64,000 nt of DNA, taken from NCBI GenBank assembly GCA_965242705.1, contig OZ251486.1, forward strand, positions 202,736-266,735, given 5' to 3'. A program made the position numbers and the translations under genes. Source of the stretch: Bryobacterales bacterium (GTDB taxonomy: Bacteria; Acidobacteriota; Terriglobia; Bryobacterales; UBA6623). Positions 22,923 through 46,900 of the stretch are shown here, piece after piece (within the stretch, counting starts at the first letter, position 1; each line of letters begins with the position of its first letter). Below the pieces are notes generated by a model. The model did no database searches. It was not told where the DNA came from and saw only the letters and a list, made by a program, of their open reading frames with translations.

Positions 22923-23897
22923 CTACTCCTTCAGCGCCGCGATCAACGCCGGCGCCACCTCGAAAAGGTCGCCAACGATGCCGTAGTCGGCAATCTCGAA
23001 GATCGGCGCGCTCTCGTCCTTGTTGATGGCGACGATGGTTTTGGCGCCCTTCATGCCGACGACGTGCTGAATGGCCCCGGAAATGCCCAGCGCAAGGTAG
23101 AGATTCGGCGAGACGGTCTGGCCGGAACTGCCGATCTGGCGTTCGAGCGGCAGCCAGCCGTTGTCGCAGATCGGCCGCGAGGCGGCCAACTCGCCGCCGA
23201 GCGCCTTGGCCAACTCCTCGGCCAGCGGAATGTTCTCCGGGTCTTTGATGCCGCGGCCGACCGAAACGATGATGTCGGCGGCCGTCAAATCGACGGCGCC
23301 CTTCGCTTCCTGAAACGGCGCCTCGGTCCGCGTGCGGATTTGCGCCGGGTCGATGGCGGCTTCCAGCTTGCGAATCGGCGCCGGGGAGCCTCCGCCGGCC
23401 GGCGCGTCCGCGCGGAATACGCCCGACTGAACCGAGGCGAAATACGGCGGTTCGCCCTCCGGCGCCGTGTCGGCATTGAGCTTCCCTTGGAAAAGCTGGC
23501 GGACGAAAATGGGCCGGCCTTCCTCCGCGGCTATGCCTACCGCGTCGCTGAGAAACGCCTTGCCCAAGCCGGCGGTCAGCTTCGGAGCGAAGTCGCGCAC
23601 TTGGTAGGTGTGCGGGAACAGCACCAAGGTCGGCTCCAACTGCTCGACGGCCTGCCCCACGGCGGCGGCGAAGCCGTCGGGCGTATAGTCGACCAGCGCC
23701 GGGTCGTCGATGACCACCACCTCGGACACGCTCCTGGCGGCGGCTTCCGCGGCCAAAGACTCGACCCCCGAGCCAATCACGGCGACTTGCAGCGGGCAGT
23801 CGAGCAGAGCTGCCGCTTCCGCCCCGGCGGCGACCGCCTCGAACGACATGCCGTGCCACACGCCGCCCGTCTGTTCACTGACGACCAGAACGCTCAT
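22923..23897 (-). CDS. etfA: electron transfer flavoprotein, alpha subunit
   Basis: 324 aa whose C-terminal FAD-binding half contains ELAASRPICDNGWLP, QIGSSGQTVSPNLYLALGISGAIQHVVGMKGAKTIVAINKD. The start ATG overlaps the etfB stop by 4 nt (23894-23897). Confidence 0.95.
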   Translation of the reverse strand: MSVLVVSEQTGGVWHGMSFEAVAAGAEAAALLDCPLQVAVIGSGVESLAAEAAARSVSEVVVIDDPALVDYTPDGFAAAVGQAVEQLEPTLVLFPHTYQVRDFAPKLTAGLGKAFLSDAVGIAAEEGRPIFVRQLFQGKLNADTAPEGEPPYFASVQSGVFRADAPAGGGSPAPIRKLEAAIDPAQIRTRTEAPFQEAKGAVDLTAADIIVSVGRGIKDPENIPLAEELAKALGGELAASRPICDNGWLPLERQIGSSGQTVSPNLYLALGISGAIQHVVGMKGAKTIVAINKDESAPIFEIADYGIVGDLFEVAPALIAALKE

Positions 23898-24664
23898 AAC
23901 ACCCTCGCTTCGAATTTCAGCTTTTCGAGCAACGCCGCGGCGGCCTCCTTGCCGCTGCCGGCGATGAATTGCGTCTGCTTCGTTTTCTGCGGAGGATACA
24001 GGCGGCGCACCGTCTGGCTTGCCTCCGGCTCGACGCCGAGCTCGCCGGCCGTGCGGACGGTCAGCGGTTTCTTCCTGGCCCGCTTGATGCCCATCAAAGT
24101 TGCGTAACGCACCTTGTTGATGCCGCTCTGAATGGTCAGCAGCGCGGGCAGCGGCATGGAAACATGCTGGAACCAGCCGGCCTCGAGCTCGCGCTTGACC
24201 CGCAGCCCGCCGTTCTCGGCGCGCACTTCCATGATGATCGTGGCGTGCGGCAGGTTCAGCAACTCGGCCAGGATGACGCCGACCTGCCCGAAACCGAAAT
24301 CGTCGGACTGCAAGCCGGTGAGCACCAGATCGTGCGCTTCCCGTCCGACGGCGGCCGCGAGCGCGCGGGCGATGCTCAGGGCGTCGGCTTGCGCAAAGCG
24401 CTCGTCCTCGATCAGAATGCCGCGGTCCGCGCCCTTGGCCAGCGCTTCGCGGATAGTCGAAGCCGCGCGCGCCGGTCCGGCCGAGACCGCGGCCACCTCG
24501 CCGCCGTGCCGCTCCTTGAGGCGCAGGGCTTCCTCCAGGGCGAAGGCGTCCGGCTCGTTCATTTCGAAATTGAGGTCTTCGTCCTCAATCCATTTGCGGC
24601 CGGCGGCAATGCGCAGCGCCGAGTCGCGCGCGCCGACTTGTTTCAGGCAAACAAAAATGTTCAT
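23894..24664 (-). CDS. etfB: electron transfer flavoprotein, beta subunit
   Basis: From the ATG at 24664 the product reads MNIFVCLKQVGARDSALRI...NEPDAFALEEALRLKE...VLTGLQSDDFGFGQVG...KVRYATLMGIKRARKKP, about 256 aa. The 390-aa track ORF extends upstream through non-coding sequence and into the first CRISPR repeat, so it is rejected. Confidence 0.93.
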   Translation of the reverse strand: MNIFVCLKQVGARDSALRIAAGRKWIEDEDLNFEMNEPDAFALEEALRLKERHGGEVAAVSAGPARAASTIREALAKGADRGILIEDERFAQADALSIARALAAAVGREAHDLVLTGLQSDDFGFGQVGVILAELLNLPHATIIMEVRAENGGLRVKRELEAGWFQHVSMPLPALLTIQSGINKVRYATLMGIKRARKKPLTVRTAGELGVEPEASQTVRRLYPPQKTKQTQFIAGSGKEAAAALLEKLKFEARVL

Positions 24665-24806
24665 GCGGGCTTCGGGCGCGCGACGGCGCCAACGAACGAT
24701 TCTATCAATTCCGCCCTGCCAATTCCGCGGACGGGGCGCGGAGCGCCGCCGCTTGCTAAGGAACCTCTGAACAAGAGCCCTGCGGGTTGGGATAATAGGG
24801 GGTTGC

Positions 24807-24998
24807 GGAAGGCGCGGAGAATAAGGGGGAGAGCGATGAGCCGGCGGACGTTTGCGGATATGGAGTACGAAGGGAAGAAAAAACAGACGAGGCGGGAGAA
24901 GTTTCTGGGGCGGATGGAGGCGTTGATTCCCTGGCAGCGGCTGGAGGAGCGCATCCGCCCGTATTACCCGCAAGCGGGGCGGGGGCGGCGAACGAACT
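24807..24998 (+). mobile_element. IS5-family insertion sequence remnant (left terminal inverted repeat plus the 5' end of the transposase gene), truncated at the CRISPR boundary
   Basis: GGAAGGCGCGGAGAATAAGGGGGA at 24807 resembles the IS5 terminal inverted repeat as I recall it (GGAAGGTGCGAATAAGCGGGGA). Twenty-nine nt later an ATG opens an IS5/InsH-type (DUF772) transposase N-terminus. Homology stops near 24988, about 10 nt before the first CRISPR repeat. No right end and no DDE domain are present. Confidence 0.75.
24836..24991 (+). pseudogene. truncated IS5-family (DDE_Tnp_1/DUF772) transposase; only about the first 52 codons remain
   Basis: The product MSRRTFADMEYEGKKKQTRREKFLGRMEALIPWQRLEERIRPYYPQAGRGRR matches the conserved N-terminal pattern FADxEYxxKxKxTRREKFLxEMExxxPWxxLxxxIxPxYPKAGxGRP of IS5-group transposases. 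The reading frame then runs straight into CRISPR repeat sequence (…TNCFNGAGVFRPRK). Confidence 0.75.
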
Positions 24999-27900
24999 GC
25001 TTCAATGGGGCCGGGGTCTTTCGACCCCGGAAATACTCGGGAAAAACTCAATGAATTCTTGCTCATCAGCGCTTCAATGGGGCCGGGGTCTTTCGACCCC
25101 GGAAATCAGTACTACAAGGTTACGACGCGCTGGAATCCATGTGCTTCAATGGGGCCGGGGTCTTTCGACCCCGGAAATTCACTGCCCCGCCGGGGCGGCG
25201 CAACCCGCCGCCCCGCTTCAATGGGGCCGGGGTCTTTCGACCCCGGAAATGGGACCAGCTCCTCGCGCATGCAGCGCAAGGGACTGCTTCAATGGGGCCG
25301 GGGTCTTTCGACCCCGGAAATAACGCCGGCCTCGTTCGCCGCGTTATGCACCAACAGGCTTCAATGGGGCCGGGGTCTTTCGACCCCGGAAATAAATAGG
25401 TAAATTCCGAGTTCAACTCGAATTCCACCTGCTTCAATGGGGCCGGGGTCTTTCGACCCCGGAAATCCGCCGCCGGATGCTCGGCCTCAGCTGATCCCAT
25501 ACGCTTCAATGGGGCCGGGGTCTTTCGACCCCGGAAATCATCTGCGGGGGGGGCGATCGCCCCCCCCACCGCAGCTTCAATGGGGCCGGGGTCTTTCGAC
25601 CCCGGAAATGGCAGCCGACTTCGCTAAAAGAACTTCGCCTAGTGGCTTCAATGGGGCCGGGGTCTTTCGACCCCGGAAATCTGCGCGGATTCAAGGCTTT
25701 ACAGATGCCGAGTCCACGCTTCAATGGGGCCGGGGTCTTTCGACCCCGGAAATGGCTGTGCAGGATCCCGTTCCCGAACTGGTTGCTCGTGCTTCAATGG
25801 GGCCGGGGTCTTTCGACCCCGGAAATAAGAAGATACAAACAATACGAACTTGCGACAGGCAAGCTTCAATGGGGCCGGGGTCTTTCGACCCCGGAAATCG
25901 GCCGCGCGCTGATCGCCGACTCGGCGAATACCGGGCTTCAATGGGGCCGGGGTCTTTCGACCCCGGAAATGGGCGGAGAGGTCGCGGATGCTGATTCCGG
26001 CAGAGAGCTTCAATGGGGCCGGGGTCTTTCGACCCCGGAAATATGCGGTCAGCTTCGATGTTTTTCCGGGCGCGGTCTTGCTTCAATGGGGCCGGGGTCT
26101 TTCGACCCCGGAAATACCAGCAAGAAACGCAAATTGCCCGTTCGCAAAACAGCTTCAATGGGGCCGGGGTCTTTCGACCCCGGAAATGGACTGACCCGCC
26201 GGGCGCGAAACTCCTCCTCTCCGGCTTCAATGGGGCCGGGGTCTTTCGACCCCGGAAATGTGGCCGGCGACGCTTGGGGTAAGTACCAAGCGCGGCTTCA
26301 ATGGGGCCGGGGTCTTTCGACCCCGGAAATCCGGCGAGGTCAACGCCGCGCTGAAACGCCTCGCCGAGCTTCAATGGGGCCGGGGTCTTTCGACCCCGGA
26401 AATGCCATCGCGCGCATCCAATCCATCGCCCGGCACGCCGGCTTCAATGGGGCCGGGGTCTTTCGACCCCGGAAATCGGAGATTCCGCGGCCGACCCCGC
26501 GGAATCGAGCCGGGCTTCAATGGGGCCGGGGTCTTTCGACCCCGGAAATGCCGGCGACATGCGCATCGTATCCGATGGCGGCAAGCTTCAATGGGGCCGG
26601 GGTCTTTCGACCCCGGAAATGCCCGCGCCCTGGTCGATCGCGTCATCGCCGCCATTGCTTCAATGGGGCCGGGGTCTTTCGACCCCGGAAATCAGGAGCG
26701 CGTGCGTTTCGCCGCGCTCCAGAATGCCGCTTCAATGGGGCCGGGGTCTTTCGACCCCGGAAATAAGATCGGATCAGCGCCGCCTCGCCCGACGAAATCG
26801 CTTCAATGGGGCCGGGGTCTTTCGACCCCGGAAATCAAGCTCCGCGAAGAGATCGGAAAATGGCCGGGGAGCTTCAATGGGGCCGGGGTCTTTCGACCCC
26901 GGAAATCAGTGAAATCGCTTTTTTTCCGTCCGGCCGCAGCCAGCTTCAATGGGGCCGGGGTCTTTCGACCCCGGAAATATCGCCCAGGGACACCTAGCAA
27001 TAGCGGAATACAACGCTTCAATGGGGCCGGGGTCTTTCGACCCCGGAAATGCGGCGCCCTCATAATCCTCGGCCTCGATGTCGATGCTTCAATGGGGCCG
27101 GGGTCTTTCGACCCCGGAAATCTCGTACTGCCGCACGATGCCATCGAGATCGCCCGGCGCTTCAATGGGGCCGGGGTCTTTCGACCCCGGAAATTCACGG
27201 CTTGCGCGACATGATCCCCGTCGAAGATCAGCTTCAATGGGGCCGGGGTCTTTCGACCCCGGAAATCGCCAGCGAGGCCGAAACGTCGGAAAATTTCAGC
27301 GGGCTTCAATGGGGCCGGGGTCTTTCGACCCCGGAAATGCGAGATCGAGTTTTCGGCGGCGGACGGATCGGCCGAGCTTCAATGGGGCCGGGGTCTTTCG
27401 ACCCCGGAAATTCGCGCAGATGGCCAAGGAAGATTTGCTCGCCGACGCGCTTCAATGGGGCCGGGGTCTTTCGACCCCGGAAATAGCTTGCCTGTGGAAA
27501 TCGTCACTCGAATCGATCGAGCTTCAATGGGGCCGGGGTCTTTCGACCCCGGAAATGTACACATGGCGGCGGCAAGAGACCCGGAACAGACGCTTCAATG
27601 GGGCCGGGGTCTTTCGACCCCGGAAATATCCCCCCCCCCTATACGGGTGATATTGTTCAACCGGCTTCAATGGGGCCGGGGTCTTTCGACCCCGGAAATT
27701 TGACTAAGGACAGTTGGCATATCTTCAAACACAGGCTTCAATGGGGCCGGGGTCTTTCGACCCCGGAAATCTATTGGGTGGTTTTCGATTCCCACCTGAT
27801 GACAATGCTTCAATGGGGCCGGGGTCTTTCGACCCCGGAAATCGAACGCCGTTGTTGATATCCTCATCGATAAGATGGGCTTCAATGGGGCCGGGGTCTT

Positions 27901-28600
27901 TCGACCCCGGAAATCGGCGGAGTCTATTATTGCTCGACGCCGCCCGTAACGGCTTCAATGGGGCCGGGGTCTTTCGACCCCGGAAATCTCAAAGGGAGCG
28001 GGGTAAAGGTTTTACCTATCGCGCTTCAATGGGGCCGGGGTCTTTCGACCCCGGAAATCTTCTCCTAACTGTCCATTTAGCGACGACCTGGAAGAGGCTT
28101 CAATGGGGCCGGGGTCTTTCGACCCCGGAAATCGGAGTCTGTGAGCTCAACGCCGCCCGTAACGTAAGGCTTCAATGGGGCCGGGGTCTTTCGACCCCGG
28201 AAATGAGTTTTAGGAAGATAACTATTTCCATCACCACCACGCTTCAATGGGGCCGGGGTCTTTCGACCCCGGAAATACGTGCACACGGCCGCCCGTGCAG
28301 GTTCGCGAACGCGCTTCAATGGGGCCGGGGTCTTTCGACCCCGGAAATTTGCCTAACAGCCTATTCGAGGCGACTTGGCAATAGGGCTTCAATGGGGCCG
28401 GGGTCTTTCGACCCCGGAAATCCCGCCTTATATCCGGCCCATAGGGGCTTTGTCAACGCTTCAATGGGGCCGGGGTCTTTCGACCCCGGAAATAAAACAA
28501 TGAACGACAAAATGATCGACGCCGTAATGCTTCAATGGGGCCGGGGTCTTTCGACCCCGGAAATGAGGCGACTCGGCAATAGGAAGGAAACTATTATGAC

Positions 28601-29934
28601 ACTTCAATGGGGCCGGGGTCTTTCGACCCCGGAAATTCCTTGCCCCACCACCCGGCCTTCTCGAATTTTTCCTCACTTCAATGGGGCCGGGGTCTTTCGA
28701 CCCCGGAAATATCTACGACCAGGCGCGGGCCAACGTCGTCGTCGTACTTCAATGGGGCCGGGGTCTTTCGACCCCGGAAATACGCCGTCCGTATCGACCT
28801 GGCCGGCGCCGGCGAGGTACTTCAATGGGGCCGGGGTCTTTCGACCCCGGAAATGGGCTGCGGCTGGGTCATGTGGCCTTTCTGGGGGCGACTTCAATGG
28901 GGCCGGGGTCTTTCGACCCCGGAAATATTCGATCTCACCCCGAAGAATTTTCCCGATGTGTCACTTCAATGGGGCCGGGGTCTTTCGACCCCGGAAATCA
29001 TTTTTTCCCGCAACTGCTTGATGCAGTCCGGAATACTTCAATGGGGCCGGGGTCTTTCGACCCCGGAAATGTTTTCCACTGGTGCTTGTTGATGGTGCAC
29101 CCTCCAAACTTCAATGGGGCCGGGGTCTTTCGACCCCGGAAATTTCCGCCGCCAAGGGGGATTTCGCGCGGCGGAGCCGCACTTCAATGGGGCCGGGGTC
29201 TTTCGACCCCGGAAATGCCCTGGGTCGGATTTTCGAAAAATCGATGGATCAGACTTCAATGGGGCCGGGGTCTTTCGACCCCGGAAATAAAGTTTATCAG
29301 AATCATCCGTAGATAATTCTGATACTTCAATGGGGCCGGGGTCTTTCGACCCCGGAAATCTCTCTTTCCCGCTAAGCGCGATTCCCCGGCGTCTCACTTC
29401 AATGGGGCCGGGGTCTTTCGACCCCGGAAATGCCCAATGGCCAAGATGAGCGGAAACACCTTCGCCACTTCAATGGGGCCGGGGTCTTTCGACCCCGGAA
29501 ATTACCGACTGTATTTGTGTCGCCTTCATAAGATATTGACTTCAATGGGGCCGGGGTCTTTCGACCCCGGAAATAACCCACGTTGTCGGAATCGACAAGA
29601 AGGGTAACAGAACTTCAATGGGGCCGGGGTCTTTCGACCCCGGAAATCCCGGAATGAATCTTGTGCTTAGGTATAAGATTATTACTTCAATGGGGCCGGG
29701 GTCTTTCGACCCCGGAAATAGGTTATGGCGCGGGCGAAGCCCGCCTTGATAGCCGACTTCAATGGGGCCGGGGTCTTTCGACCCCGGAAATAAGAAGGAA
29801 GGAACAAACAATGATTGAACGCGAAATACTTCAATGGGGCCGGGGTCTTTCGACCCCGGAAATGGGCGGGCGAAGCCCGCCTCGATAACCGCAACAAAAC
29901 TTCAATGGGGCCGGGGTCTTTCGACCCCGGAAAT
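28601..29934 (-). repeat. block of 19 consecutive variant CRISPR repeats (plus-strand position 1 G->A, giving ACTTCAATGG...)
   Basis: The repeats starting at 28601, 28675, 28746, 28819, 28891, 28963, 29035, 29108, 29181, 29253, 29324, 29396, 29467, 29539, 29612, 29684, 29756, 29828 and 29899 all begin with A. The flanking repeats at 28529 and 29970 begin with G, as did every other repeat I read. Confidence 0.9.
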
Positions 29935-30224
29935 ATGCTCCGCCTCATCCGCGCCGATGCGGTGAGCAAGCTTCAATGGGGCCGGGGTCTTTCGACCCCG
30001 GAAATAGCGCCCGCCACAGGGCGGCCACGGTTGGCGCATTCGCTTCAATGGGGCCGGGGTCTTTCGACCCCGGAAATGACGGCGCTGACTGTCCGGGCGT
30101 TGGAGACGGAAGCGGGCTTCAATGGGGCCGGGGTCTTTCGACCCCGGAAATTCCGATGCATACGCTCACCCTCGATTCCGGCCACCCGGCTTCAATGGGG
30201 CCGGGGTCTTTCGACCCCGGAAAT

Positions 30225-30332
30225 CAATCCCAGCCCGACTTCGACGACGAAGACATCTTCGCTTCAATGGGGCCGGGGTCTTTCGACCCCGGAAATCAAT
30301 CCCAGCCCGACTTCGACGACGAAGACATCTTC
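30225..30332 (-). repeat. tandem duplication of one spacer-repeat unit inside the array
   Basis: The spacer CAATCCCAGCCCGACTTCGACGACGAAGACATCTTC occurs at 30225-30260 and again, identically, at 30297-30332, in adjacent units. Confidence 0.95.
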
Positions 30333-33300
30333 GCTTCAATGGGGCCGGGGTCTTTCGACCCCGGAAATGGGGGGCGGTGAGGTGAAGGTGTTGATAGCGT
30401 CAGGCTTCAATGGGGCCGGGGTCTTTCGACCCCGGAAATGCGCCGGGGGTCGATTGTGATAATTGCGGTTGCCGTGCTTCAATGGGGCCGGGGTCTTTCG
30501 ACCCCGGAAATGACTGGATTGCCATGCAGCAGCAAAAGCAAGCCGCCGGCTTCAATGGGGCCGGGGTCTTTCGACCCCGGAAATGCCTGACGCCATGCCC
30601 CATCCGAAGCAATACATCGTCGCTTCAATGGGGCCGGGGTCTTTCGACCCCGGAAATCTGCATTGCGCCATTCCGTGGAGTCCAAGCCGTGGCGGGCTTC
30701 AATGGGGCCGGGGTCTTTCGACCCCGGAAATCGGGGGCGGTCGTTCGGGCGGCCGCTCGGCGGTCGCGCTTCAATGGGGCCGGGGTCTTTCGACCCCGGA
30801 AATCCAAGCAGCCCGATGGGCCGCCAGCGAAAACCAAAAGGCTTCAATGGGGCCGGGGTCTTTCGACCCCGGAAATGCCTTCGAGCGGCGCGAATCGCAA
30901 GGCGCAATCACCGCTTCAATGGGGCCGGGGTCTTTCGACCCCGGAAATGAAGAAATGGAAACTGATCTTCCAAACCCAAAACTGCTTCAATGGGGCCGGG
31001 GTCTTTCGACCCCGGAAATGCGCCGGCAGCCATCCAAGCGGCGCTGAAGCGCCTCGCTTCAATGGGGCCGGGGTCTTTCGACCCCGGAAATCAGGTCGGA
31101 CGGCTCAACTCCGTCTTGAATCCCTCGCTTCAATGGGGCCGGGGTCTTTCGACCCCGGAAATCAGCGGCTCCCCAAGCACCAGAGACGCCGGATCGTAAG
31201 CTTCAATGGGGCCGGGGTCTTTCGACCCCGGAAATCGGCTTGGGGGTCGGCGTAATCGGAGACGGCTTCGTCGCTTCAATGGGGCCGGGGTCTTTCGACC
31301 CCGGAAATGCGTGTCCCATCCCAAGCAAACGAGTACCGGGTCGATGCTTCAATGGGGCCGGGGTCTTTCGACCCCGGAAATGGCGCCAACTGCGACCGGC
31401 CGCCCCATGACGCCGGTTGCTTCAATGGGGCCGGGGTCTTTCGACCCCGGAAATGCGTTCAACCGCATTTGATTTTGGCTGATGAGCCTTCGGCTTCAAT
31501 GGGGCCGGGGTCTTTCGACCCCGGAAATCGGGGGGTGTCGCATGATCCGCCGCGGGACCGTAATCGCTTCAATGGGGCCGGGGTCTTTCGACCCCGGAAA
31601 TATAGCCCAAGCGGTCTATCGCGGCTACGCGGTCATCGCTTCAATGGGGCCGGGGTCTTTCGACCCCGGAAATGGGCTTTGGCGATCGCGAGGCGGCGGA
31701 GGCCTGGGGCGCTTCAATGGGGCCGGGGTCTTTCGACCCCGGAAATGGGAAAGAAAAATGACGAATCGCGGCGAAGCGGTGGCTTCAATGGGGCCGGGGT
31801 CTTTCGACCCCGGAAATGCCGAGATGTTCCGTTTTCAGGAGTTAGGCAGCCGCGCTTCAATGGGGCCGGGGTCTTTCGACCCCGGAAATCCGCTGGTCGG
31901 GCTGTGGGCCGACAGCAACCGCTTCGCTTCAATGGGGCCGGGGTCTTTCGACCCCGGAAATATCCGGCGCTTGCGGCCCGGCGCCGCTGCCGGGCGGGCT
32001 TCAATGGGGCCGGGGTCTTTCGACCCCGGAAATCACCAGCGGCGCTTGCAGCGCGGAAACGCTCGACTGGCTTCAATGGGGCCGGGGTCTTTCGACCCCG
32101 GAAATGCCTGGAGATAAGCAATGAGACGTACGTATACGTCGTGCTTCAATGGGGCCGGGGTCTTTCGACCCCGGAAATTTGGTCTTGGTGTCGGTCTTGG
32201 CGGCGGCCGCATACGGCTTCAATGGGGCCGGGGTCTTTCGACCCCGGAAATGCGATGCGGGCGAGCAGCGCCGCTTTCTCCGTTTGGCTTCAATGGGGCC
32301 GGGGTCTTTCGACCCCGGAAATCTGCCCAGTCGCCTTTGGTATGCCGAAGGCAGATACGCTTCAATGGGGCCGGGGTCTTTCGACCCCGGAAATGTGCAG
32401 GGCGCAGAGAAACCCGGCGGTGGCAAGATAGCTTCAATGGGGCCGGGGTCTTTCGACCCCGGAAATGTTCAGCGCCGCATCATCGCGGCGCGAACAACCG
32501 GCCCGGCTTCAATGGGGCCGGGGTCTTTCGACCCCGGAAATGCGCCGTATCGGAAACGGAAAAGATGCCAAATCCGATAGCTTCAATGGGGCCGGGGTCT
32601 TTCGACCCCGGAAATCAGTCGAGCGTTTCCGCGCTGCAAGCGCCGGCGGTGCTTCAATGGGGCCGGGGTCTTTCGACCCCGGAAATACGCGCATTGGCGG
32701 AACGAGTTCGTGTAGGTACGAGCTTCAATGGGGCCGGGGTCTTTCGACCCCGGAAATCAGAAAATGATCGGGCAGCTAAACCAGCTTCGGCAGGCTTCAA
32801 TGGGGCCGGGGTCTTTCGACCCCGGAAATGCGCTCATAGACAGTAAGCTGCACGCGCCCGTCATCGCTTCAATGGGGCCGGGGTCTTTCGACCCCGGAAA
32901 TCGCCGCCTGCTGCGCGTTGCCGCGCCGCTTCGCGGTGCTTCAATGGGGCCGGGGTCTTTCGACCCCGGAAATTCCAACTGCAGGCGCGATTTGACTTGC
33001 GGCGCGATGCTTCAATGGGGCCGGGGTCTTTCGACCCCGGAAATGCCTTCCCCCTTGCCCTCCGCGCCGTCGGAGGCCAAGCTTCAATGGGGCCGGGGTC
33101 TTTCGACCCCGGAAATCGCCATTGCCGGCGTTACGGCTGCGATGCTTGCGGGTGCTTCAATGGGGCCGGGGTCTTTCGACCCCGGAAATGGCGGCGAAGC
33201 AGGCCGAGATCGAAGCGCTGGAAGGCGCTTCAATGGGGCCGGGGTCTTTCGACCCCGGAAATGCCGAATCCGCGCGTTGCCAACTCCCGCATATACTCCG

Positions 33301-36300
33301 CTTCAATGGGGCCGGGGTCTTTCGACCCCGGAAATTTGAGTGGAGGCAAAGGCATGATCGCGAATTCCGAAGCTTCAATGGGGCCGGGGTCTTTCGACCC
33401 CGGAAATAAGCTGGAGATGGATACGAAGCAGAACCGGTTCCGCTAGCTTCAATGGGGCCGGGGTCTTTCGACCCCGGAAATGCCGGTTGGCACCATCATC
33501 ATGCACCGGCGGCCCGAGCTTCAATGGGGCCGGGGTCTTTCGACCCCGGAAATGTGACCGGCTTGCCGGCGCGCCGCTCGATCTCGGTCGCTTCAATGGG
33601 GCCGGGGTCTTTCGACCCCGGAAATCGGACATGGGTATTAAATAGTGGATGGAAAATTATCGCTTCAATGGGGCCGGGGTCTTTCGACCCCGGAAATCTT
33701 CATGTCCCACGTCGAAATCTTGAATCCAGCGGCTGCTTCAATGGGGCCGGGGTCTTTCGACCCCGGAAATATTCCGTTCCACGATTGAATGGTATCACGG
33801 GCTATTTGCTTCAATGGGGCCGGGGTCTTTCGACCCCGGAAATAGACGGCGGAATCGGAATTTCGCGAGAAGATAGCGAGCTTCAATGGGGCCGGGGTCT
33901 TTCGACCCCGGAAATCAGCACTTCCCACGCCTTTGGCTTTGGATTCAATGCGCTTCAATGGGGCCGGGGTCTTTCGACCCCGGAAATCCCCACCCACCAC
34001 CGCAAACCCCCCCCGCAGATGATCGCTTCAATGGGGCCGGGGTCTTTCGACCCCGGAAATGGCCGAAGCGCGGCGGAAGCAGGCGGCGGCCGAAGCCGGC
34101 TTCAATGGGGCCGGGGTCTTTCGACCCCGGAAATTTGCCCAGGGTCCTCAAAGACAAAGATAAACAAATGGCTTCAATGGGGCCGGGGTCTTTCGACCCC
34201 GGAAATTTATTTGTACCAGAAGGCTTTTATTTTCACTCAGAGGCTTCAATGGGGCCGGGGTCTTTCGACCCCGGAAATCTGTAGCTGAGAAGAATGCTGC
34301 GACAAGGCAAGCTGCTTCAATGGGGCCGGGGTCTTTCGACCCCGGAAATTCCAACCGTCATCAACGACGTGACCCGCACTATCGGTGCTTCAATGGGGCC
34401 GGGGTCTTTCGACCCCGGAAATGATTGACGAAAGCCGCATACCACGCAGCGCGGCGGCGCTTCAATGGGGCCGGGGTCTTTCGACCCCGGAAATAAGGAA
34501 ACCGAGGCGGACGCCGCCTGGGTAGCCTCGGCTTCAATGGGGCCGGGGTCTTTCGACCCCGGAAATCGGCGGGAATTCCCGCGTGATCCACGCGCGGACG
34601 GTCGCTTCAATGGGGCCGGGGTCTTTCGACCCCGGAAATCGCGGTCTGGATGATTTCCGTCCCGGTCTTCGTGGTGCTTCAATGGGGCCGGGGTCTTTCG
34701 ACCCCGGAAATATTGACGCGCCCATCGTCCGCCCGAAGATAATCAATGCTTCAATGGGGCCGGGGTCTTTCGACCCCGGAAATGGGGAGGCCTGGGGGTG
34801 ACGGAGCAGACGGTAGCCCAGGCTTCAATGGGGCCGGGGTCTTTCGACCCCGGAAATCGGCAACGGCCACACAGGCGGACGCATCGGCCAGACGCTTCAA
34901 TGGGGCCGGGGTCTTTCGACCCCGGAAATGCGCAGCCAGTACGTGCGCTTCTGGAGCGTCAATCCGCTTCAATGGGGCCGGGGTCTTTCGACCCCGGAAA
35001 TTACCGACCCGGGGTTGCGCGCGGCGTGGGCATTGGCGGCTTCAATGGGGCCGGGGTCTTTCGACCCCGGAAATAGGCCGAAACCACGGCGGCAGGGACG
35101 CCGACGAAACGGCTTCAATGGGGCCGGGGTCTTTCGACCCCGGAAATAAGCAAGTGAAAATCACGGATAGCCGGATACCGCGAAGCTTCAATGGGGCCGG
35201 GGTCTTTCGACCCCGGAAATGTTGGCGGGCAACCACGGCTATGTTTTCCAACTGCTTGCTTCAATGGGGCCGGGGTCTTTCGACCCCGGAAATCCGCATA
35301 CCGGAAAGCGACGGCAACATGCCCATCGTGCTTCAATGGGGCCGGGGTCTTTCGACCCCGGAAATTTGCGTGACGCCCACTTGCTCCTGTCGAAGCTGGT
35401 TGCTTCAATGGGGCCGGGGTCTTTCGACCCCGGAAATGTCTTTCCCACGGCTTCGCTGCCATATCCTTACCTGCTTCAATGGGGCCGGGGTCTTTCGACC
35501 CCGGAAATGAGAAGCAGTTCCAACAGCAGGTCATCGACCTGGCGGCTTCAATGGGGCCGGGGTCTTTCGACCCCGGAAATGCGCAAGCATCGAAACGGCC
35601 AGTCCGAGCAAGTAAAGCTTCAATGGGGCCGGGGTCTTTCGACCCCGGAAATGACCGAACCCTGGTTGTTCAGATTCTTGACGCCCCAGCTTCAATGGGG
35701 CCGGGGTCTTTCGACCCCGGAAATACGCCGATACACCACCGGCACGTGGTGGCACAGGTCGCTTCAATGGGGCCGGGGTCTTTCGACCCCGGAAATCATT
35801 TGGTCGGCGAGTGCGATGCGGTCGACGAGGAAGCTTCAATGGGGCCGGGGTCTTTCGACCCCGGAAATGCGATTACCACCACAAGGCGACTTCGGCGATA
35901 GCCGCTTCAATGGGGCCGGGGTCTTTCGACCCCGGAAATTTGCTTGTTGTCTTGCCAACGCAGAGTGCTATCGGAGCTTCAATGGGGCCGGGGTCTTTCG
36001 ACCCCGGAAATGTGGCGAGCGGCACCACGGCGGCGCCTCTGGCGCATGGCTTCAATGGGGCCGGGGTCTTTCGACCCCGGAAATGGCGACCGTCACGCGA
36101 AATGCAATGGATGCTGCCAGGCTTCAATGGGGCCGGGGTCTTTCGACCCCGGAAATCGGACGGGCGGACGGCCATCACGATGGCCGTCCACACGCTTCAA
36201 TGGGGCCGGGGTCTTTCGACCCCGGAAATCAGGTGACAAGGCTGTGAAAAACTACGCCAAAGAAGCTTCAATGGGGCCGGGGTCTTTCGACCCCGGAAAT

Positions 36301-39300
36301 ATCGTCTGCTTCGGCGAATGTTCCGTAATGCAATTGCTTCAATGGGGCCGGGGTCTTTCGACCCCGGAAATGTGGCCTTTGCAGCGGATAACGACGGCGA
36401 CTTCGCCGCTTCAATGGGGCCGGGGTCTTTCGACCCCGGAAATGCGGCTCCTTCTGCCAATGCCAGGGATTACCCTGCCCCGCTTCAATGGGGCCGGGGT
36501 CTTTCGACCCCGGAAATGCGGTCAGCGCCGTCCGCGAAGAAGCGGACGACGCCGCTTCAATGGGGCCGGGGTCTTTCGACCCCGGAAATGGGTTGATCCA
36601 CGGCACTCGCGCCGCTTGGCTCTCGCTTCAATGGGGCCGGGGTCTTTCGACCCCGGAAATATGCGGCTGCGCTCCAGGTCCTCGGCTCCGCGCTCGAGCT
36701 TCAATGGGGCCGGGGTCTTTCGACCCCGGAAATGCGACGCTGCCAAAGCGGTACTGGACGCGCGCCGAGGGCTTCAATGGGGCCGGGGTCTTTCGACCCC
36801 GGAAATGGCGCGGTTCGGCGCCCCGCCCGCATTCCCAAGACCAGCTTCAATGGGGCCGGGGTCTTTCGACCCCGGAAATTCGCTGGCTATCGCCGGCGCG
36901 CTGAGCGGCGCTGTCGCTTCAATGGGGCCGGGGTCTTTCGACCCCGGAAATCTGCCGCCATGCCGGATTACTGGAAGGGCTGGGTGGAGCTTCAATGGGG
37001 CCGGGGTCTTTCGACCCCGGAAATGACGTGATGATCGCATGGGCCGGCGATCCCGCGCTGGCTTCAATGGGGCCGGGGTCTTTCGACCCCGGAAATGGTT
37101 CGTCGGCACACAATCAGGATAGCGCTTACGGCACGCTTCAATGGGGCCGGGGTCTTTCGACCCCGGAAATATCCGCTCGTGCGCCAACCAAAGACATCGC
37201 GGCTGCCGCTTCAATGGGGCCGGGGTCTTTCGACCCCGGAAATGCGACCGGCTACGGCATGGGCATGGCTGACCACCTTGCTTCAATGGGGCCGGGGTCT
37301 TTCGACCCCGGAAATTCGAAGACGGCTGGCAACAGGTCAAGGTCTCCGGCGCTTCAATGGGGCCGGGGTCTTTCGACCCCGGAAATGTCGCAACGGCTGC
37401 CGGTTACGCCGCGCGCTGCAAGGCTTCAATGGGGCCGGGGTCTTTCGACCCCGGAAATACGCGCCACATCACGGAACAAAACCCCGCGCTGTTGGGCTTC
37501 AATGGGGCCGGGGTCTTTCGACCCCGGAAATGCGCATTACGGAGCGCGGCGTGGATGCGGTTGCCGCGCTTCAATGGGGCCGGGGTCTTTCGACCCCGGA
37601 AATCTGCGTGGCGGTCACTACCGGAACGAATACGGCTTCGCTTCAATGGGGCCGGGGTCTTTCGACCCCGGAAATGCGCATCAACCTGCCCCTGTTGCCT
37701 CAGAACCAAGAGGCTTCAATGGGGCCGGGGTCTTTCGACCCCGGAAATATGGATGGGATCGGAAGCCCCGGCTGCGGTATCCGGCTTCAATGGGGCCGGG
37801 GTCTTTCGACCCCGGAAATATGATGTGCGCCAAGCCTTCGCACGGCCCGGCGCTGCTTCAATGGGGCCGGGGTCTTTCGACCCCGGAAATCAGTGGCAAA
37901 GCGGAGGCAACGTCAGCGCCGGATGGGCTTCAATGGGGCCGGGGTCTTTCGACCCCGGAAATGGGAGCGCTTGTTGCACTTTTCCAAAACCACAGACATG
38001 CTTCAATGGGGCCGGGGTCTTTCGACCCCGGAAATGCGCATGGTCGGTATCCGTAGTCAATGGGCTGGGGCGCTTCAATGGGGCCGGGGTCTTTCGACCC
38101 CGGAAATATGCCCTTGGTGACGGCTTCGGACAGCCAGTGCGTGCTTCAATGGGGCCGGGGTCTTTCGACCCCGGAAATCGGAACCACAGTCGCCGCTTGG
38201 CGGAAAGCAGCAAAGCTTCAATGGGGCCGGGGTCTTTCGACCCCGGAAATGGGTGCCTTTTGGCGCATGTTTAGAAGCAGCGTCCAGCTTCAATGGGGCC
38301 GGGGTCTTTCGACCCCGGAAATCTGAGGTTGACGGCCGTCATTTTGTGCGCTTTGGCGGCTTCAATGGGGCCGGGGTCTTTCGACCCCGGAAATGATTTT
38401 GGCGGCGGTCATTGGTCTTGCTCTCGGAAAGCTTCAATGGGGCCGGGGTCTTTCGACCCCGGAAATGAAAGACATCGAACGCGCCGAATGGGACGCCTAC
38501 GGCTTCAATGGGGCCGGGGTCTTTCGACCCCGGAAATACGACAAACCCGTACGCATTGTCTCGAATATCCAAGTGCTTCAATGGGGCCGGGGTCTTTCGA
38601 CCCCGGAAATGCCATCGCATCGGCCACCTCGATGACTTTCTTTGCGGCTTCAATGGGGCCGGGGTCTTTCGACCCCGGAAATGCGAATGGCGAAAAGCAT
38701 ATCGCGCCGTACTGCGGGCTTCAATGGGGCCGGGGTCTTTCGACCCCGGAAATCGGACGCGATGGGCGTTCGGGGAACCAACCGCAAGGCTTCAATGGGG
38801 CCGGGGTCTTTCGACCCCGGAAATGCGACAAATGCGACGATTTCTAATCCTCGCCACGCTGCTTCAATGGGGCCGGGGTCTTTCGACCCCGGAAATGCGT
38901 GTCCCATCCCAAGCAAACGAGTACCGGGTCGATGCTTCAATGGGGCCGGGGTCTTTCGACCCCGGAAATCAGCCGCCCGGCTTCCGTTGCCCATTGCAAC
39001 GGCCCGCTTCAATGGGGCCGGGGTCTTTCGACCCCGGAAATGGCGGACGCTTGGACGGCGCCGAGCGGGAGTTGAACGCTTCAATGGGGCCGGGGTCTTT
39101 CGACCCCGGAAATATGAGTCCTTCCTTTCGGTTATCTCCACCGCAGCCTGCTTCAATGGGGCCGGGGTCTTTCGACCCCGGAAATAAGGTCAACGCAAGC
39201 GTCGTTGACGGAATCCATGCGGCTTCAATGGGGCCGGGGTCTTTCGACCCCGGAAATCCCCGCGCCGGATCAGGTCCCGACCGACCAGGCCGAGCTTCAA

Positions 39301-40559
39301 TGGGGCCGGGGTCTTTCGACCCCGGAAATCATGGAGCCGCTGAAATGCTTCCGGGCCGTCACCAAGCTTCAATGGGGCCGGGGTCTTTCGACCCCGGAAA
39401 TCGCCGAATGCCTGATCGAGGCGCCCGACGACAAAGCGGCTTCAATGGGGCCGGGGTCTTTCGACCCCGGAAATAGCATCCGCGCCTTTGGCTGGCAACA
39501 GCCGCTCGTAGGCTTCAATGGGGCCGGGGTCTTTCGACCCCGGAAATACCTTGACGCACGGCTGTGGCAAGCGCCGCCGACCGTCGCTTCAATGGGGCCG
39601 GGGTCTTTCGACCCCGGAAATATGGCGGTCGCTGTCGAGTTTGTCTTCAATGGCGCGGCTTCAATGGGGCCGGGGTCTTTCGACCCCGGAAATGCGCTGG
39701 CCAGCATCGAGGCCGACCAAGCCGCCGCCGCTTCAATGGGGCCGGGGTCTTTCGACCCCGGAAATATTGGAGTCCCTGGAACAACTCTCCGCCCAAGCAT
39801 GGCTTCAATGGGGCCGGGGTCTTTCGACCCCGGAAATTCACCTTAACCCGCAGATGGTCAGGCCGGATACAGTGCTTCAATGGGGCCGGGGTCTTTCGAC
39901 CCCGGAAATGCGCGCAATGCGCCAGCATTCGAGAGCGGTACGAAGCTTCAATGGGGCCGGGGTCTTTCGACCCCGGAAATGACGGCGACGCGGCGGAGTT
40001 GGCCGCCTTGGCCGTCGCTTCAATGGGGCCGGGGTCTTTCGACCCCGGAAATAGGCACCTCATGGCCGAAATCACCCGGCTACAAGAGGCTTCAATGGGG
40101 CCGGGGTCTTTCGACCCCGGAAATCTGGCAAAGCGGCAACGCAAGCCAGAATGCGAGGCAGCTTCAATGGGGCCGGGGTCTTTCGACCCCGGAAATACAT
40201 TGCCAATGCGAATCTCATTGGCCAGAATCATTTGCTTCAATGGGGCCGGGGTCTTTCGACCCCGGAAATGTAGGCCTGTTTGACCCGCAGATGGTCGACT
40301 TCGGCGCTTCAATGGGGCCGGGGTCTTTCGACCCCGGAAATGTCGTGCTGCACCGAGTTTCCGAAACCGAAGCCGAAAGGCTTCAATGGGGCCGGGGTCT
40401 TTCGACCCCGGAAATCGGCTACGACCATCGCGCCTACGTCCATCCCGCCACGCTTCAATGGGGCCGGGGTCTTTCGACCCCGGAAATATCGCCGGAATCA
40501 TCTACGCCGCCATCTACACGGGCGCTTCAATGGGGCCGGGGTCTTTCGACCCCGGAAAT

Positions 40560-40989
40560 GCTGATGGCGATTGCGATGCCGTCCGCCGCTGCAGCGCTTC
40601 AATGGGGCCGGGGTCTTTCGACCCCGGAAATGCGCCTGCCGCTGTCGCAACGGCTGCCGGTTCCGCCGCTTCAATGGGGCCGGGGTCTTTCGACCCCGGA
40701 AATATGATCTCGATGCTGTTGCTGATCTCCGCCAGCGAGCTTCAATGGGGCCGGGGTCTTTCGACCCCGGAAATGCTGATGGCGATTGCGATGCCGTCCG
40801 CCGCTGCAGCGCTTCAATGGGGCCGGGGTCTTTCGACCCCGGAAATGCGCCTGCCGCTGTCGCAACGGCTGCCGGTTCCGCCGCTTCAATGGGGCCGGGG
40901 TCTTTCGACCCCGGAAATATGATCTCGATGCTGTTGCTGATCTCCGCCAGCGAGCTTCAATGGGGCCGGGGTCTTTCGACCCCGGAAAT
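40560..40989 (-). repeat. tandem duplication of a three-unit (215-bp) spacer-repeat block inside the array
   Basis: The spacers GCTGATGGCGATTGCGATGCCGTCCGCCGCTGCAGC, GCGCCTGCCGCTGTCGCAACGGCTGCCGGTTCCGCC and ATGATCTCGATGCTGTTGCTGATCTCCGCCAGCGA (40560-40774 with their repeats) recur in the same order at 40775-40989. Confidence 0.95.
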
Positions 40990-43900
40990 ACGTCACCTTC
41001 CATTCGGTCGGTTCGATAGCTTCGTTGCTTCAATGGGGCCGGGGTCTTTCGACCCCGGAAATCGGAAGATGAAGCAGACCGAGGCGCAGTTCGCCAACTG
41101 GGCTTCAATGGGGCCGGGGTCTTTCGACCCCGGAAATGTATTCGCTGGCTATTTGGTGCTGCGGGCCAAGCTGGCTTCAATGGGGCCGGGGTCTTTCGAC
41201 CCCGGAAATGCGATGCAGTCCTTGCCGACAAGCCTCCACACAATCGCTTCAATGGGGCCGGGGTCTTTCGACCCCGGAAATTACATGGGCGACAACCAAT
41301 GCGACAAGCGTGAGCATGCTTCAATGGGGCCGGGGTCTTTCGACCCCGGAAATCTGCACCGCTACGCCGATCTGGAGAAAGATGTCGTGCTTCAATGGGG
41401 CCGGGGTCTTTCGACCCCGGAAATATGCCGAGCTGAGCGCGCAGATCGGCAAGACGAATGCCGCTTCAATGGGGCCGGGGTCTTTCGACCCCGGAAATCA
41501 CGGGGAAGGCATCGCAGACACCTTCCGCACTATCGGCTTCAATGGGGCCGGGGTCTTTCGACCCCGGAAATGCGCGAAACCACGTCGACCTGACCGTACT
41601 CGTCAAGCTTCAATGGGGCCGGGGTCTTTCGACCCCGGAAATCGCCGCGCTGATGGAGATCGTTCGTCGGCAGGCGCATGCTTCAATGGGGCCGGGGTCT
41701 TTCGACCCCGGAAATAATTTCTTCGGCGAATGCCAATTCGCAAGCACGGTCGCTTCAATGGGGCCGGGGTCTTTCGACCCCGGAAATGTGTTCAAGAAGG
41801 GCGATATGTTTCGCATGGGCGGGCTTCAATGGGGCCGGGGTCTTTCGACCCCGGAAATCAGCAGCAGCAGACCCAGTCGCAGCAGCAAATGCAGGCTTCA
41901 ATGGGGCCGGGGTCTTTCGACCCCGGAAATGGGCAGCGAGACCAAGCGCGAGACCAGGCGCAAGGAACGCTTCAATGGGGCCGGGGTCTTTCGACCCCGG
42001 AAATGGCTCGCTGGTGCGCCCCAAAGTCGTCTCCGGGACGCGCTTCAATGGGGCCGGGGTCTTTCGACCCCGGAAATGGAGCGCCTGGTCGAAATTTGCA
42101 ATCGCGAAATCAGGCTTCAATGGGGCCGGGGTCTTTCGACCCCGGAAATTCGAAACCGCGCAAGTAGGGGTGGCCGGGCGTCCCGGCTTCAATGGGGCCG
42201 GGGTCTTTCGACCCCGGAAATGTGCCGGCTGCGGCGCGTGCATGTCGAGGAGATCGCCGGCGCTTCAATGGGGCCGGGGTCTTTCGACCCCGGAAATCTC
42301 CCGCGACCCGCGCGAAACCGCGCCGACCGCATCGCTTCAATGGGGCCGGGGTCTTTCGACCCCGGAAATGCAAGCTATAATCGAGCGATGGACAAGAACG
42401 AACAAGGCTTCAATGGGGCCGGGGTCTTTCGACCCCGGAAATATACGGCGGGATGTTCGCCCGCTGCGGGCTCAACTTGCTTCAATGGGGCCGGGGTCTT
42501 TCGACCCCGGAAATGGGAACGGCATAATCGACGTCACCGTCGTAACGCCTTGCTTCAATGGGGCCGGGGTCTTTCGACCCCGGAAATACGCAGGACGGAT
42601 ACGGATACGACAGGACAGCCGGCGGCTTCAATGGGGCCGGGGTCTTTCGACCCCGGAAATCCTCGCCGAACCAGTCTATCCACTTTGATGTGGCCTCGCT
42701 TCAATGGGGCCGGGGTCTTTCGACCCCGGAAATGAAGACCCATCCGCAGACCCGGCCGGGCGCGGCCAGCTTCAATGGGGCCGGGGTCTTTCGACCCCGG
42801 AAATGTGACGATATTAGTGGCAACACGGATAAGCTGTCGCTGCTTCAATGGGGCCGGGGTCTTTCGACCCCGGAAATCCGCGCGTTCGCGCCCGGCGGCT
42901 GCGGCGGTTTCGTGCTTCAATGGGGCCGGGGTCTTTCGACCCCGGAAATGCTCGGCGATGTCGTTCGGCCCGGCGGCCCAACCGCGCTTCAATGGGGCCG
43001 GGGTCTTTCGACCCCGGAAATGCGCCTCTCCACGTCCCGCGCCGCCGAAGATGCTCTGCTTCAATGGGGCCGGGGTCTTTCGACCCCGGAAATACGCGGG
43101 ACGAACGGATCACGATCCGCCTGTCCGCCGCTTCAATGGGGCCGGGGTCTTTCGACCCCGGAAATGCGGCGGATGCCGCCGCCCCACGCTCGCACCTCGT
43201 CGCTTCAATGGGGCCGGGGTCTTTCGACCCCGGAAATCTTCGCCGCCGACCTCACCGCCGGGCAATGCTCGGCGGGCTTCAATGGGGCCGGGGTCTTTCG
43301 ACCCCGGAAATATCGAGCGGCAGGCCGGTGAGCATGACCGGCGTGCGGCTTCAATGGGGCCGGGGTCTTTCGACCCCGGAAATCCGACGTTTTGTTTGGT
43401 CTCCGCATAACGTCCATTGTGCTTCAATGGGGCCGGGGTCTTTCGACCCCGGAAATTACCATGAGATTGCCCGACAGTGGCAGCGATTGTCCGCTTCAAT
43501 GGGGCCGGGGTCTTTCGACCCCGGAAATGCATCAACGACGCGGTCGAGTTCTTGCGACCGCCGGGCTTCAATGGGGCCGGGGTCTTTCGACCCCGGAAAT
43601 AAGGACATTGGAGGTGTCCCTATGCCTGACTCTACGCTTCAATGGGGCCGGGGTCTTTCGACCCCGGAAATCATCTTGATTTCCTTTCCATTGCCGGCGG
43701 CAATGTCGCTTCAATGGGGCCGGGGTCTTTCGACCCCGGAAATCTGGATGTCGGTCGCGTCGAGCGGGTGCGGGAGAAGCGCTTCAATGGGGCCGGGGTC
43801 TTTCGACCCCGGAAATACGCCGCCTATGACCAAGCGTCCGCCGAAGAGACCGTGCTTCAATGGGGCCGGGGTCTTTCGACCCCGGAAATCCGAAAGGACC

Positions 43901-46900
43901 CGACCGACCAATGCCCCGACACATCGCTTCAATGGGGCCGGGGTCTTTCGACCCCGGAAATTGCGGTAGAAGCCTGCCGGATCGGGTTTCCAATCGCCGC
44001 TTCAATGGGGCCGGGGTCTTTCGACCCCGGAAATGGTAAGACGCTGTACGTGGCGCATCGGGATGGCGCGGCTTCAATGGGGCCGGGGTCTTTCGACCCC
44101 GGAAATAACGCCTCCGCGACTGAAAGGAGAAAGACCAATGACGCTTCAATGGGGCCGGGGTCTTTCGACCCCGGAAATGGCAAGGTCATGTGCCCCGAAT
44201 GCCGAGCATATGACGCTTCAATGGGGCCGGGGTCTTTCGACCCCGGAAATGCGCTTGTTACCACCGGCCTCTCAGCCGACTCTTATGGCTTCAATGGGGC
44301 CGGGGTCTTTCGACCCCGGAAATCGATTTGCCGCCCCAGACGTGCTGCCCGCTGACGTTGCTTCAATGGGGCCGGGGTCTTTCGACCCCGGAAATGCCGA
44401 CGAATGACACGGTCTATACCGCAGTGGCCGAGCTTCAATGGGGCCGGGGTCTTTCGACCCCGGAAATCTGCGGCCCGTTCCAGTACGGAAGGTCACACAA
44501 CTCGCTTCAATGGGGCCGGGGTCTTTCGACCCCGGAAATCTGCGATTGGCCAGCCAAAAAGACAAGAACTCCGGCGCTTCAATGGGGCCGGGGTCTTTCG
44601 ACCCCGGAAATGGGATGCCTGCTTCTTCGGCGGCGGGGTTGAATTCCGGGCTTCAATGGGGCCGGGGTCTTTCGACCCCGGAAATACCCCCCAAACCCCC
44701 GCATGGCCGCCGCCCGCCGCGCTTCAATGGGGCCGGGGTCTTTCGACCCCGGAAATCCGGCAGCTTCCCGCTCATCGAACGCAGCGAAGACCTGCTTCAA
44801 TGGGGCCGGGGTCTTTCGACCCCGGAAATCGGTGACGAATGATGCCAATCGGAAGCAGGCGTTATCGCTTCAATGGGGCCGGGGTCTTTCGACCCCGGAA
44901 ATATGCTCCGCGCCGTGGAGTCCCAGATCGAAAAGGAGAGCTTCAATGGGGCCGGGGTCTTTCGACCCCGGAAATCTCCCAGTCCGCCGAGCGCACGGGT
45001 TACCCGACGCAGCTTCAATGGGGCCGGGGTCTTTCGACCCCGGAAATGTGGACTCTCCCCACCCCAACGCCGGAGCCGGAGCCGCTTCAATGGGGCCGGG
45101 GTCTTTCGACCCCGGAAATGGGCGTTATCCGCCCCATGACGGCGGCGGCCTTGTCGCTTCAATGGGGCCGGGGTCTTTCGACCCCGGAAATCCCCAAGTG
45201 CTTGGCGGACTCAAAATCAATGAAGCCGCTTCAATGGGGCCGGGGTCTTTCGACCCCGGAAATGCGGAAGGCTGAGGGGTATTGCGTAACCTGTCCTCGC
45301 TTCAATGGGGCCGGGGTCTTTCGACCCCGGAAATGCCGAAACTCACCCGCTGATTTCCGAGATCGAGTAGCTTCAATGGGGCCGGGGTCTTTCGACCCCG
45401 GAAATCTGATCGAACCGGATGATCCAGTGCATCAGGTCATGCGGCTTCAATGGGGCCGGGGTCTTTCGACCCCGGAAATGCCCGGCGAAATCTGGATCAA
45501 CACCAGGCAAGTGACGGCTTCAATGGGGCCGGGGTCTTTCGACCCCGGAAATCTTCCCCGTTCCCAGCGCCTGAAAAAACTTGCGTTGCTTCAATGGGGC
45601 CGGGGTCTTTCGACCCCGGAAATTTCCACCGGCAAAACGACCCTGGCCATGACCGCCAGCTTCAATGGGGCCGGGGTCTTTCGACCCCGGAAATACGCGC
45701 CGCTCAACCGACACACGACGGCGGCGACCGCTTCAATGGGGCCGGGGTCTTTCGACCCCGGAAATGCCCATATCGCGCAAGCCGATAGCGTCCGGGCCGC
45801 TGCTTCAATGGGGCCGGGGTCTTTCGACCCCGGAAATGCCGCAGAAGCCCGGCTGCTCGCGCCAGACAAAGACGCTTCAATGGGGCCGGGGTCTTTCGAC
45901 CCCGGAAATCAATTCCACACCGAGCGGCGTCGCCATAACTGCGCTGCTTCAATGGGGCCGGGGTCTTTCGACCCCGGAAATCGCCACTCGCGCCTTCGCG
46001 TACAGCGCCGACAGCGGGCTTCAATGGGGCCGGGGTCTTTCGACCCCGGAAATAGAATGTTTGAAGGTCGATGCCGCTCCGCTCGTCATGCTTCAATGGG
46101 GCCGGGGTCTTTCGACCCCGGAAATCCAAAATGAAGCTGACACTGCAACGGCTGCGCGAAGGCTTCAATGGGGCCGGGGTCTTTCGACCCCGGAAATCCG
46201 ACCACAATCAAACGCATCCTCGCCGCGCACGGGCTTCAATGGGGCCGGGGTCTTTCGACCCCGGAAATTCGCGGCCCGATAACCGGCGCATTGATGGTCA
46301 GCGTGCTTCAATGGGGCCGGGGTCTTTCGACCCCGGAAATGCGCTCTGAATCCGCTCAGGTCAATCGGCCTTGACTCGCTTCAATGGGGCCGGGGTCTTT
46401 CGACCCCGGAAATACCGGCGAATGGTAAGCCTGCGCAAGGATACCGAGCGCTTCAATGGGGCCGGGGTCTTTCGACCCCGGAAATTCGAAACCGCCAAGA
46501 AGCACAGCCCCGATTGGGCGCTTCAATGGGGCCGGGGTCTTTCGACCCCGGAAATGCGGCAGGGGTGCTCGGCGAGCGTGTACTCGCCGGGGCTTCAATG
46601 GGGCCGGGGTCTTTCGACCCCGGAAATCCGCTACGCGGTTGATCGCGCCGCGGACGCACTAGAGGCTTCAATGGGGCCGGGGTCTTTCGACCCCGGAAAT
46701 CTCAATGCCCTGGAGGCCGCCCGCATTCAAGGCTTCGCTTCAATGGGGCCGGGGTCTTTCGACCCCGGAAATAACCAACTACACGCAGCACACAGCCAAG
46801 GGACAATTGCTTCAATGGGGCCGGGGTCTTTCGACCCCGGAAATAAGGGGCACGTGTTTACCGCCGCCGGCCAAAGCACGCTTCAATGGGGCCGGGGTCT

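Follow-up and report, generated by a model that had tools for sequence, protein, structure and literature searches.

A broken IS5-family element joined to a large CRISPR array in an uncultured Bryobacterales bacterium: a probable rearrangement breakpoint

A 64-kb stretch of DNA from an uncultured soil Bryobacterales bacterium (Acidobacteriota), hereafter the window, whose positions serve as coordinates throughout, carries a very long CRISPR array (clustered short palindromic repeats, regularly interspaced) that begins seven bases from the broken interior of an insertion sequence (IS) of the IS5 family. The junction between the two is probably a scar left by a chromosomal rearrangement, without a function of its own, rather than the product of a simple local deletion. 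An earlier reading of this DNA from its letters alone (the original prediction) had proposed that an IS inserted in or next to the array, and that a later deletion removed the rest of the IS together with the oldest repeat-spacer units and the trailer. Loss of the original array end has held up, whereas insertion at the array finds no support in related strains, nor does a single local deletion in the gene content of the presumed source contig.

Insertion site and rearrangement breakpoint

The contigs of the 13 members of the 90% cluster of the EtfB protein were compared with the window. Genes run in the order cytochrome c, acpP, fabF, etfB, etfA, Rrf2 and cysteine synthase both in conspecific strains and in a lineage at about 89.5% identity, with neither an IS nor a CRISPR array within 10 kb. 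Seven of the related contigs are 96.8-98.1% identical to the window; their homology to it stops exactly at 24759, and their empty site, aligned as ...GCTTGCTAA followed by CCGCGGTAGCGG..., contains a single CTAA, of which CTA is the complement of the TAG stop codon of fabF. The IS follows this CTAA in the window and in two further strains, L001 (99.27% identity) and L002 (99.03% identity), which also possess the exact EtfB protein of the window; the contig of L002 ends after 26 nt of IS sequence, which is what an element present in many copies would be expected to cause. CTAA at the left flank fits the target motif of IS5, YTAR (PMC5009759), and the second copy of the 4-bp target duplication would lie at the missing right end. 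Because the relatives show an empty fabF-etfB site without an array, the IS evidently inserted outside any array, at the CTAA that overlaps the stop codon of fabF and lies 95 nt upstream of etfB. The insertion took place in one sub-lineage, represented by these three strains. A look-up of the exact EtfA protein gave no match, and 80 EtfB relatives in GTDB (at most 79% identical) have no similar repeat and poor synteny, and are uninformative on the ancestral boundary of the array.

None of fabF, acpP, the cytochrome c gene and thiF lies within the window. A contig of 4,969,973 bp that encodes the exact EtfB of the window also carries FabF (P0141, differing from that of a relative at 1 of 422 residues, 99.8% identity, with an intact C-terminus), the acyl carrier protein (ACP, 100% identical to that of the relative), the cytochrome c and ThiF (99.4% identical). 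A single local deletion fails as an explanation because the right end of the IS would have abutted fabF, yet all four genes are present on this contig, the presumed source of the window.

An IS5-family element of about 1.2 kb (of the NF033581 type, with DUF772 and DDE_Tnp_1 domains) entered the CTAA at the fabF stop in one sub-lineage of a Bryobacterales species, and its copy in the window is broken after base 232 (codon 52) and joined through seven bases to a full, perfect repeat at the array end. The junction would then be one breakpoint of a larger event, for which three options are not separable: (a) an inversion or translocation with two breaks, one inside the IS and the other inside a spacer, closed by illegitimate recombination; (b) truncation of an IS copy located beside the array by a deletion into the array, followed by a homologous exchange within the shared 232 bp that swapped the product onto the etfB flank; or (c) insertion into the IS of a DNA segment ending within the array. 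Under every option, the oldest repeat-spacer units would be either lost or located elsewhere in the chromosome.

The IS5-family remnant

The open reading frame (ORF) that starts from the ATG at 24836 encodes MSRRTFADMEYEGKKKQTRREKFLGRMEALIPWQRLEERIRPYYPQAGRGRR, the N-terminus of an IS5-family transposase (52 residues, MSRRTF...AGRGRR), which is 60-67% identical to annotated IS5-family transposases (best E value 1e-15 at 67% identity, tblastn against plasmids). The orfA product of a relative of about 1.19 kb (L003) is 79% identical over residues 1-52 (tblastn, E 1.3e-24), with an alignment that ends at 24991, and the fragment also matches an intact 319-aa relative (L086; BLASTP, E 2e-23) that scores 328.8 bits on NF033581 and contains DUF772 and DDE_Tnp_1 domains. 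Environmental relatives of 316 aa share 79-84% identity with the transposase N-terminus. Profile hidden Markov models respond weakly to the 54-aa fragment (no match in Pfam; E 0.0015 with IS5_4 of NCBIfam) because it is short and stops at residue 52, where DUF772 starts, and its identity as a transposase is therefore settled by the BLAST-type comparisons, whose significant matches bear out the predicted IS5-type frame that breaks off after about 52 codons. The DDE domain and the right end, which had been reported as missing, gave no match anywhere in the window (tblastn with the DDE part of the relative), and the right inverted repeat is absent from it. Judged from its sequence, the fragment is a remnant and not an active element.

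The extent of the remnant follows from its two limits. L001 is identical to the window up to 24991 with zero mismatches and then continues into normal transposase sequence (CCGTACGAGTTG..., RRPYELSAMLRIHC...) for 85 more bases to the end of its contig, so that the comparison with related strains proposed earlier did yield a longer version of the same insertion. This point of divergence, together with the left end of the IS at 24760, delimits the remnant as 24760-24991. The left end is recognizable from the L003 relative, which has GGAACCTCTGAA(T/C)AAG inverted at both ends, the same sequence being present at window positions 24760-24775, and this terminus is conserved in two further relatives (L086 and L087). 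It also begins at the very base after which the seven empty-site contigs cease to align with the window. The true left end of the IS is accordingly placed by these alignments at 24760. The original prediction rightly described an intact left end and gene start facing the array but set the inverted repeat at 24807; the candidate there, GGAAGGCGCGGAG, was rejected, as it lies 47 nt inside the element and its GGAAGG motif is not conserved in the relatives.

The presumed spacer stump of about 10 nt (24989-24998) is shorter than had been thought: IS homology reaches 24991, so the gap is 7 nt. Its bases match the continuation of the IS at four of seven positions, with a chance probability of about 7%, and each of the other three is the first base of a codon. 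On this placement of every mismatch, diverged IS sequence is unlikely and was rejected as the source of the stump. The seven bases would instead be a spacer stump or junction filler.

With the IS5 group (NF033581, "transpos_IS5_4"; IS5 of E. coli) the window element shares a 16-bp terminal inverted repeat beginning with GGAA and a CTAA site that fits YTAR, but the window copy keeps only 232 of about 1,190 bp and has no DDE domain, right inverted repeat or second copy of the target duplication. The element is an IS5-group member without a name, and its closest public relatives are 84% identical over the N-terminal 80 aa; a search of public protein data found no intact copy of this IS exceeding that identity over the same 80 aa. 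Relatives in JGI metagenomes are at most 73% identical at the amino acid level and are informative for conservation of the inverted repeat only.

The left end of the IS contains a promoter-like site (24768-24796 on the plus strand; TGAACA, 17 nt, TG-GATAAT) that faces the transposase stump and hence runs antisense into the array. In three strains the IS sits 95 nt upstream of etfB, where it could affect expression of etfBA. The DNA upstream of etfB varies among strains of the species by an indel of 14 nt (CAATTTCGCCTGAG; 24665-24759 compared with L172 and L174).

Table 1. Features at the junction of the IS remnant and the CRISPR array (window coordinates)
Feature	Position	Strand	Remarks
etfB (electron transfer flavoprotein beta subunit)	23894..24664	-	Conserved gene beside the IS insertion site; Pfam ETF, E 4e-42
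Remainder of the ancestral etfB-fabF intergenic region	24665..24759	.	Ends in CTAA (24756-24759), the apparent IS target; aligned with seven empty-site contigs
Left terminal inverted repeat of the IS, GGAACCTCTGAACAAG	24760..24775	+	At both ends of the L003 relative; conserved in L086 and L087
IS5-family remnant: left inverted repeat, 76-nt leader and transposase codons 1-52	24760..24991	+	232 bp of about 1,190 bp
Transposase codons 1-52	24836..24991	+	Frame stays open across the junction and stops inside the array at 25052-25054; the chimeric ORF has 72 aa
Seven bases ACGAACT, putative spacer stump or junction filler	24992..24998	.	3 of 7 positions differ from the IS continuation CCGTACG in L001
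Terminal (probably promoter-distal) CRISPR repeat, perfect; in CRISPR RNA (crRNA) sense ATTTCCGGGGTCGAAAGACCCCGGCCCCATTGAAGC	24999..25034	-	Minus-strand match to Rfam CRISPR-DR16, 33.7 bits
CRISPR array with 539 spacers (34-40 nt) between 540 identical repeats	24999..63995	-	Continues past the right end of the window

The array end and alternative explanations of the junction

The repeats match the Rfam family CRISPR-DR16 (RF01330) on the minus strand with 33.7-34.5 bits (E about 1e-6, best 5e-07; gathering score 35). Family and window repeat have the same stem position, and the 12-nt 3' tail is CCCCAUUGAAGC in the window repeat and CCUCAUUGAAaC in the consensus, but stem and loop are not the same in sequence, the best score falls slightly short of the gathering score, and no cas genes are in view from which to assign a subtype. 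In crRNA sense the repeat terminates in ATTGAAGC. Overlapping spacers supply 5' protospacer flanks in minus orientation (TTC, TTC, CTC, TCC, CGC, CCG and TTT), which amount to a weak TTC-like signal, the opposite side being patternless. Transcription of the array from the minus strand, with its leader beyond the window, is suggested by the Rfam strand and repeat end together with this TTC-like flank, and these features point to 24999 as the promoter-distal (old, trailer) end of the array. As a rule, the terminal repeat of an array is polymorphic and its trailer end conserved (PMC8047081). A degenerate terminal repeat and a trailer are not present here: the first repeat (24999-25034) is perfect, as had been observed at the outset and as are all 540, and it is followed after 7 nt by IS DNA. 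Because a perfect terminal repeat abuts foreign DNA at this distance, the original array end is gone.

Several points weigh against reading the junction as a rearrangement breakpoint in an array that has lost its old end. The assignment of the 4,969,973-bp contig as the source of the window is inferred from an exact protein match and the length of the contig, its DNA not having been seen directly; the DNA that was read is that of the window, and both the place of fabF with respect to the array and bases 233-1190 of the IS lie outside that view. No independent contig crosses the junction, which is represented by one assembly (exact-match look-ups with the 72-aa chimeric ORF and with two array ORFs found none, nor did an array query). 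L001 is a short-read scaffold, and its extension of the IS could derive from other IS copies in the metagenome. The polarity of the array depends on repeat conventions and on an Rfam score below threshold (34.5 versus 35 bits), and neither a leader nor cas genes were found in the window, the left 25 kb of which hold housekeeping genes and no cas.

Insertion of the IS in or beside the array, followed by one local deletion of the right part of the IS, the trailer and old units in unknown number, would readily place a truncated IS only 7 nt from a perfect terminal repeat, and deletion is the commonest type of illegitimate event. Such a history is nevertheless unlikely, given that the insertion site is the fabF-etfB intergenic region, where the seven related contigs have no array, and that the deletion would need the loss of fabF, acpP, the cytochrome c gene and thiF, which are retained at 99.4-100% identity in the 4.97-Mb contig; it would be tenable only at another locus, as the opening step of a history with two steps. 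An artefact of assembly, whereby a chimeric read or a misjoin within a strain mixture fused the IS locus to the array, would fit the absence of the junction from any second assembly, the one related contig that crosses 24991 and stays in the IS, and the many strains of 97-99% identity that co-occur in samples of the same study. It is nonetheless quite unlikely: the interior of the IS and the array have no sequence in common that could serve as substrate for a repeat-graph misjoin, the break falls neither at an IS end nor at a repeat boundary, the left side is collinear with the relatives right up to the junction, and 540 error-free repeats imply accurate long reads, for which 232 bp would be an easy span. 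Most probably, the junction is real.

It is very improbable that the fusion arose through CRISPR self-targeting, either by recombination of an anti-transposase spacer with its protospacer or by repair onto the array of a Cas-mediated break in the IS. The last 29 nt of the IS and the 7-nt stump together do make up one spacer length, four of the seven stump bases equal the IS continuation, and clusters of overlapping spacers suggest an active system of the priming type; but a match at four of seven is expected by chance at about 7%, the placement of the mismatches at first codon positions is the reverse of the pattern expected from a diverged IS copy, the would-be protospacer adjacent motif is ACT and not the weak TTC-like motif, and comparison of the 539 spacers with the IS family and all 178 fetched loci yielded only chance-level matches of 18-22 nt. 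Little credence can likewise be given to a non-accidental fusion of this kind in which, under the presumed minus-strand polarity, antisense IS sequence after the terminal repeat gave rise to a crRNA-like transcript. Were that the case, the transcript would base-pair with the mRNA or DNA of the transposase in intact copies over about 29 of its first 36 nt, with mismatches in the seed, and such a guide could prime against the IS or regulate it.

A rearrangement breakpoint has parallels in known systems. In the CRISPR (DR) locus of Mycobacterium tuberculosis, IS6110 has been implicated in the loss or rearrangement of array segments (PMC7708916), and there, as here, an IS stands at the border of missing repeat-spacer units. 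The M. tuberculosis deletions arise through homologous recombination of two IS copies and leave a complete IS within the repeats or cas genes, whereas the IS in the window is broken internally (base 232), is joined within a spacer, has a non-CRISPR sequence on its other flank and has its insertion site outside the array. Recombination between inverted IS copies inverts the intervening segment, and IS elements are commonplace at the breakpoints of inversions and deletions (PMC5009759). The IS of the window resembles such cases in its location at a breakpoint of synteny, but a plain exchange between IS copies leaves full-length elements, and truncation at base 232 needs at least one additional illegitimate joint.

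Remnants of IS elements at rearrangement breakpoints, and the loss of CRISPR units in association with an IS, are familiar phenomena, and the junction is an ordinary genomic scar that involves no new biology. It marks a strain-specific chromosomal rearrangement involving an IS in an uncultured Bryobacterales species. For the history of the array, the visible length (at least 540 repeats) is a minimum, the old end not being the original one, and dating from the "oldest" spacer would mislead.

Repeats and spacers of the array

The array consists of 540 mismatch-free copies of CTTCAATGGGGCCGGGGTCTTTCGACCCCGGAAAT, preceded by G in 521 cases and by A in 19, that is, regular repeats of 35/36 nt separated by spacers of 34-40 nt, of which none would be expected by chance. 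The longest array published so far, that of Haliangium ochraceum, has 587 spacers (PMC7145573, PMC10076291); with at least 540 repeats, the present array is in the class of this record or larger, and its size is more notable than the junction. The repeat pattern has no match in metagenome contigs of JGI or in viral contigs, a search of plasmids with the repeat returned chance partial matches only, and a six-frame query of a protein database with the array returned only arrays with different repeats. Three of the database "proteins" of 740-770 aa (P0291-P0293, from ENA contigs of 6.6-36.6 kb) are translated CRISPR arrays whose repeats start with GCTTCAATGGGGCC like that of the window and have different stems; they are gene-calling artefacts from a related repeat family. 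No protospacers for four spacer cores were found in viral contigs.

The 19 repeats with A for G at the first base of the plus strand are consecutive (repeats 51-69, 28601-29899), changing ATTGAAGC to ATTGAAGT in crRNA sense, and have 50 normal repeats next to them toward the old end and 471 toward the new end. To arise as one uninterrupted run, they need either a mutation in the leader-proximal repeat that later reverted, or recombination that brought in the whole block.

Several spacers are duplicated. Spacers 216-218 and 219-221 form a tandem duplication of three units (40560-40953), spacers 73 and 74 are identical neighbours (30225-30332), and spacers 512 and 513 form a pair offset by one base (61970-62079), while identical spacers also occur far apart (88 and 193, 435 and 480, 440 and 476). 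Overlapping spacers that address the same targets on both strands form the clusters 172/217/220/307, 395/440/476, 346/366, 326/411 and 407/538, as expected of primed adaptation by a type I system. The mean G+C content of the spacers is about 0.60 at the old end and climbs to about 0.65 close to where the window ends (25035-63959), compared with 0.67 in the flanking chromosome.

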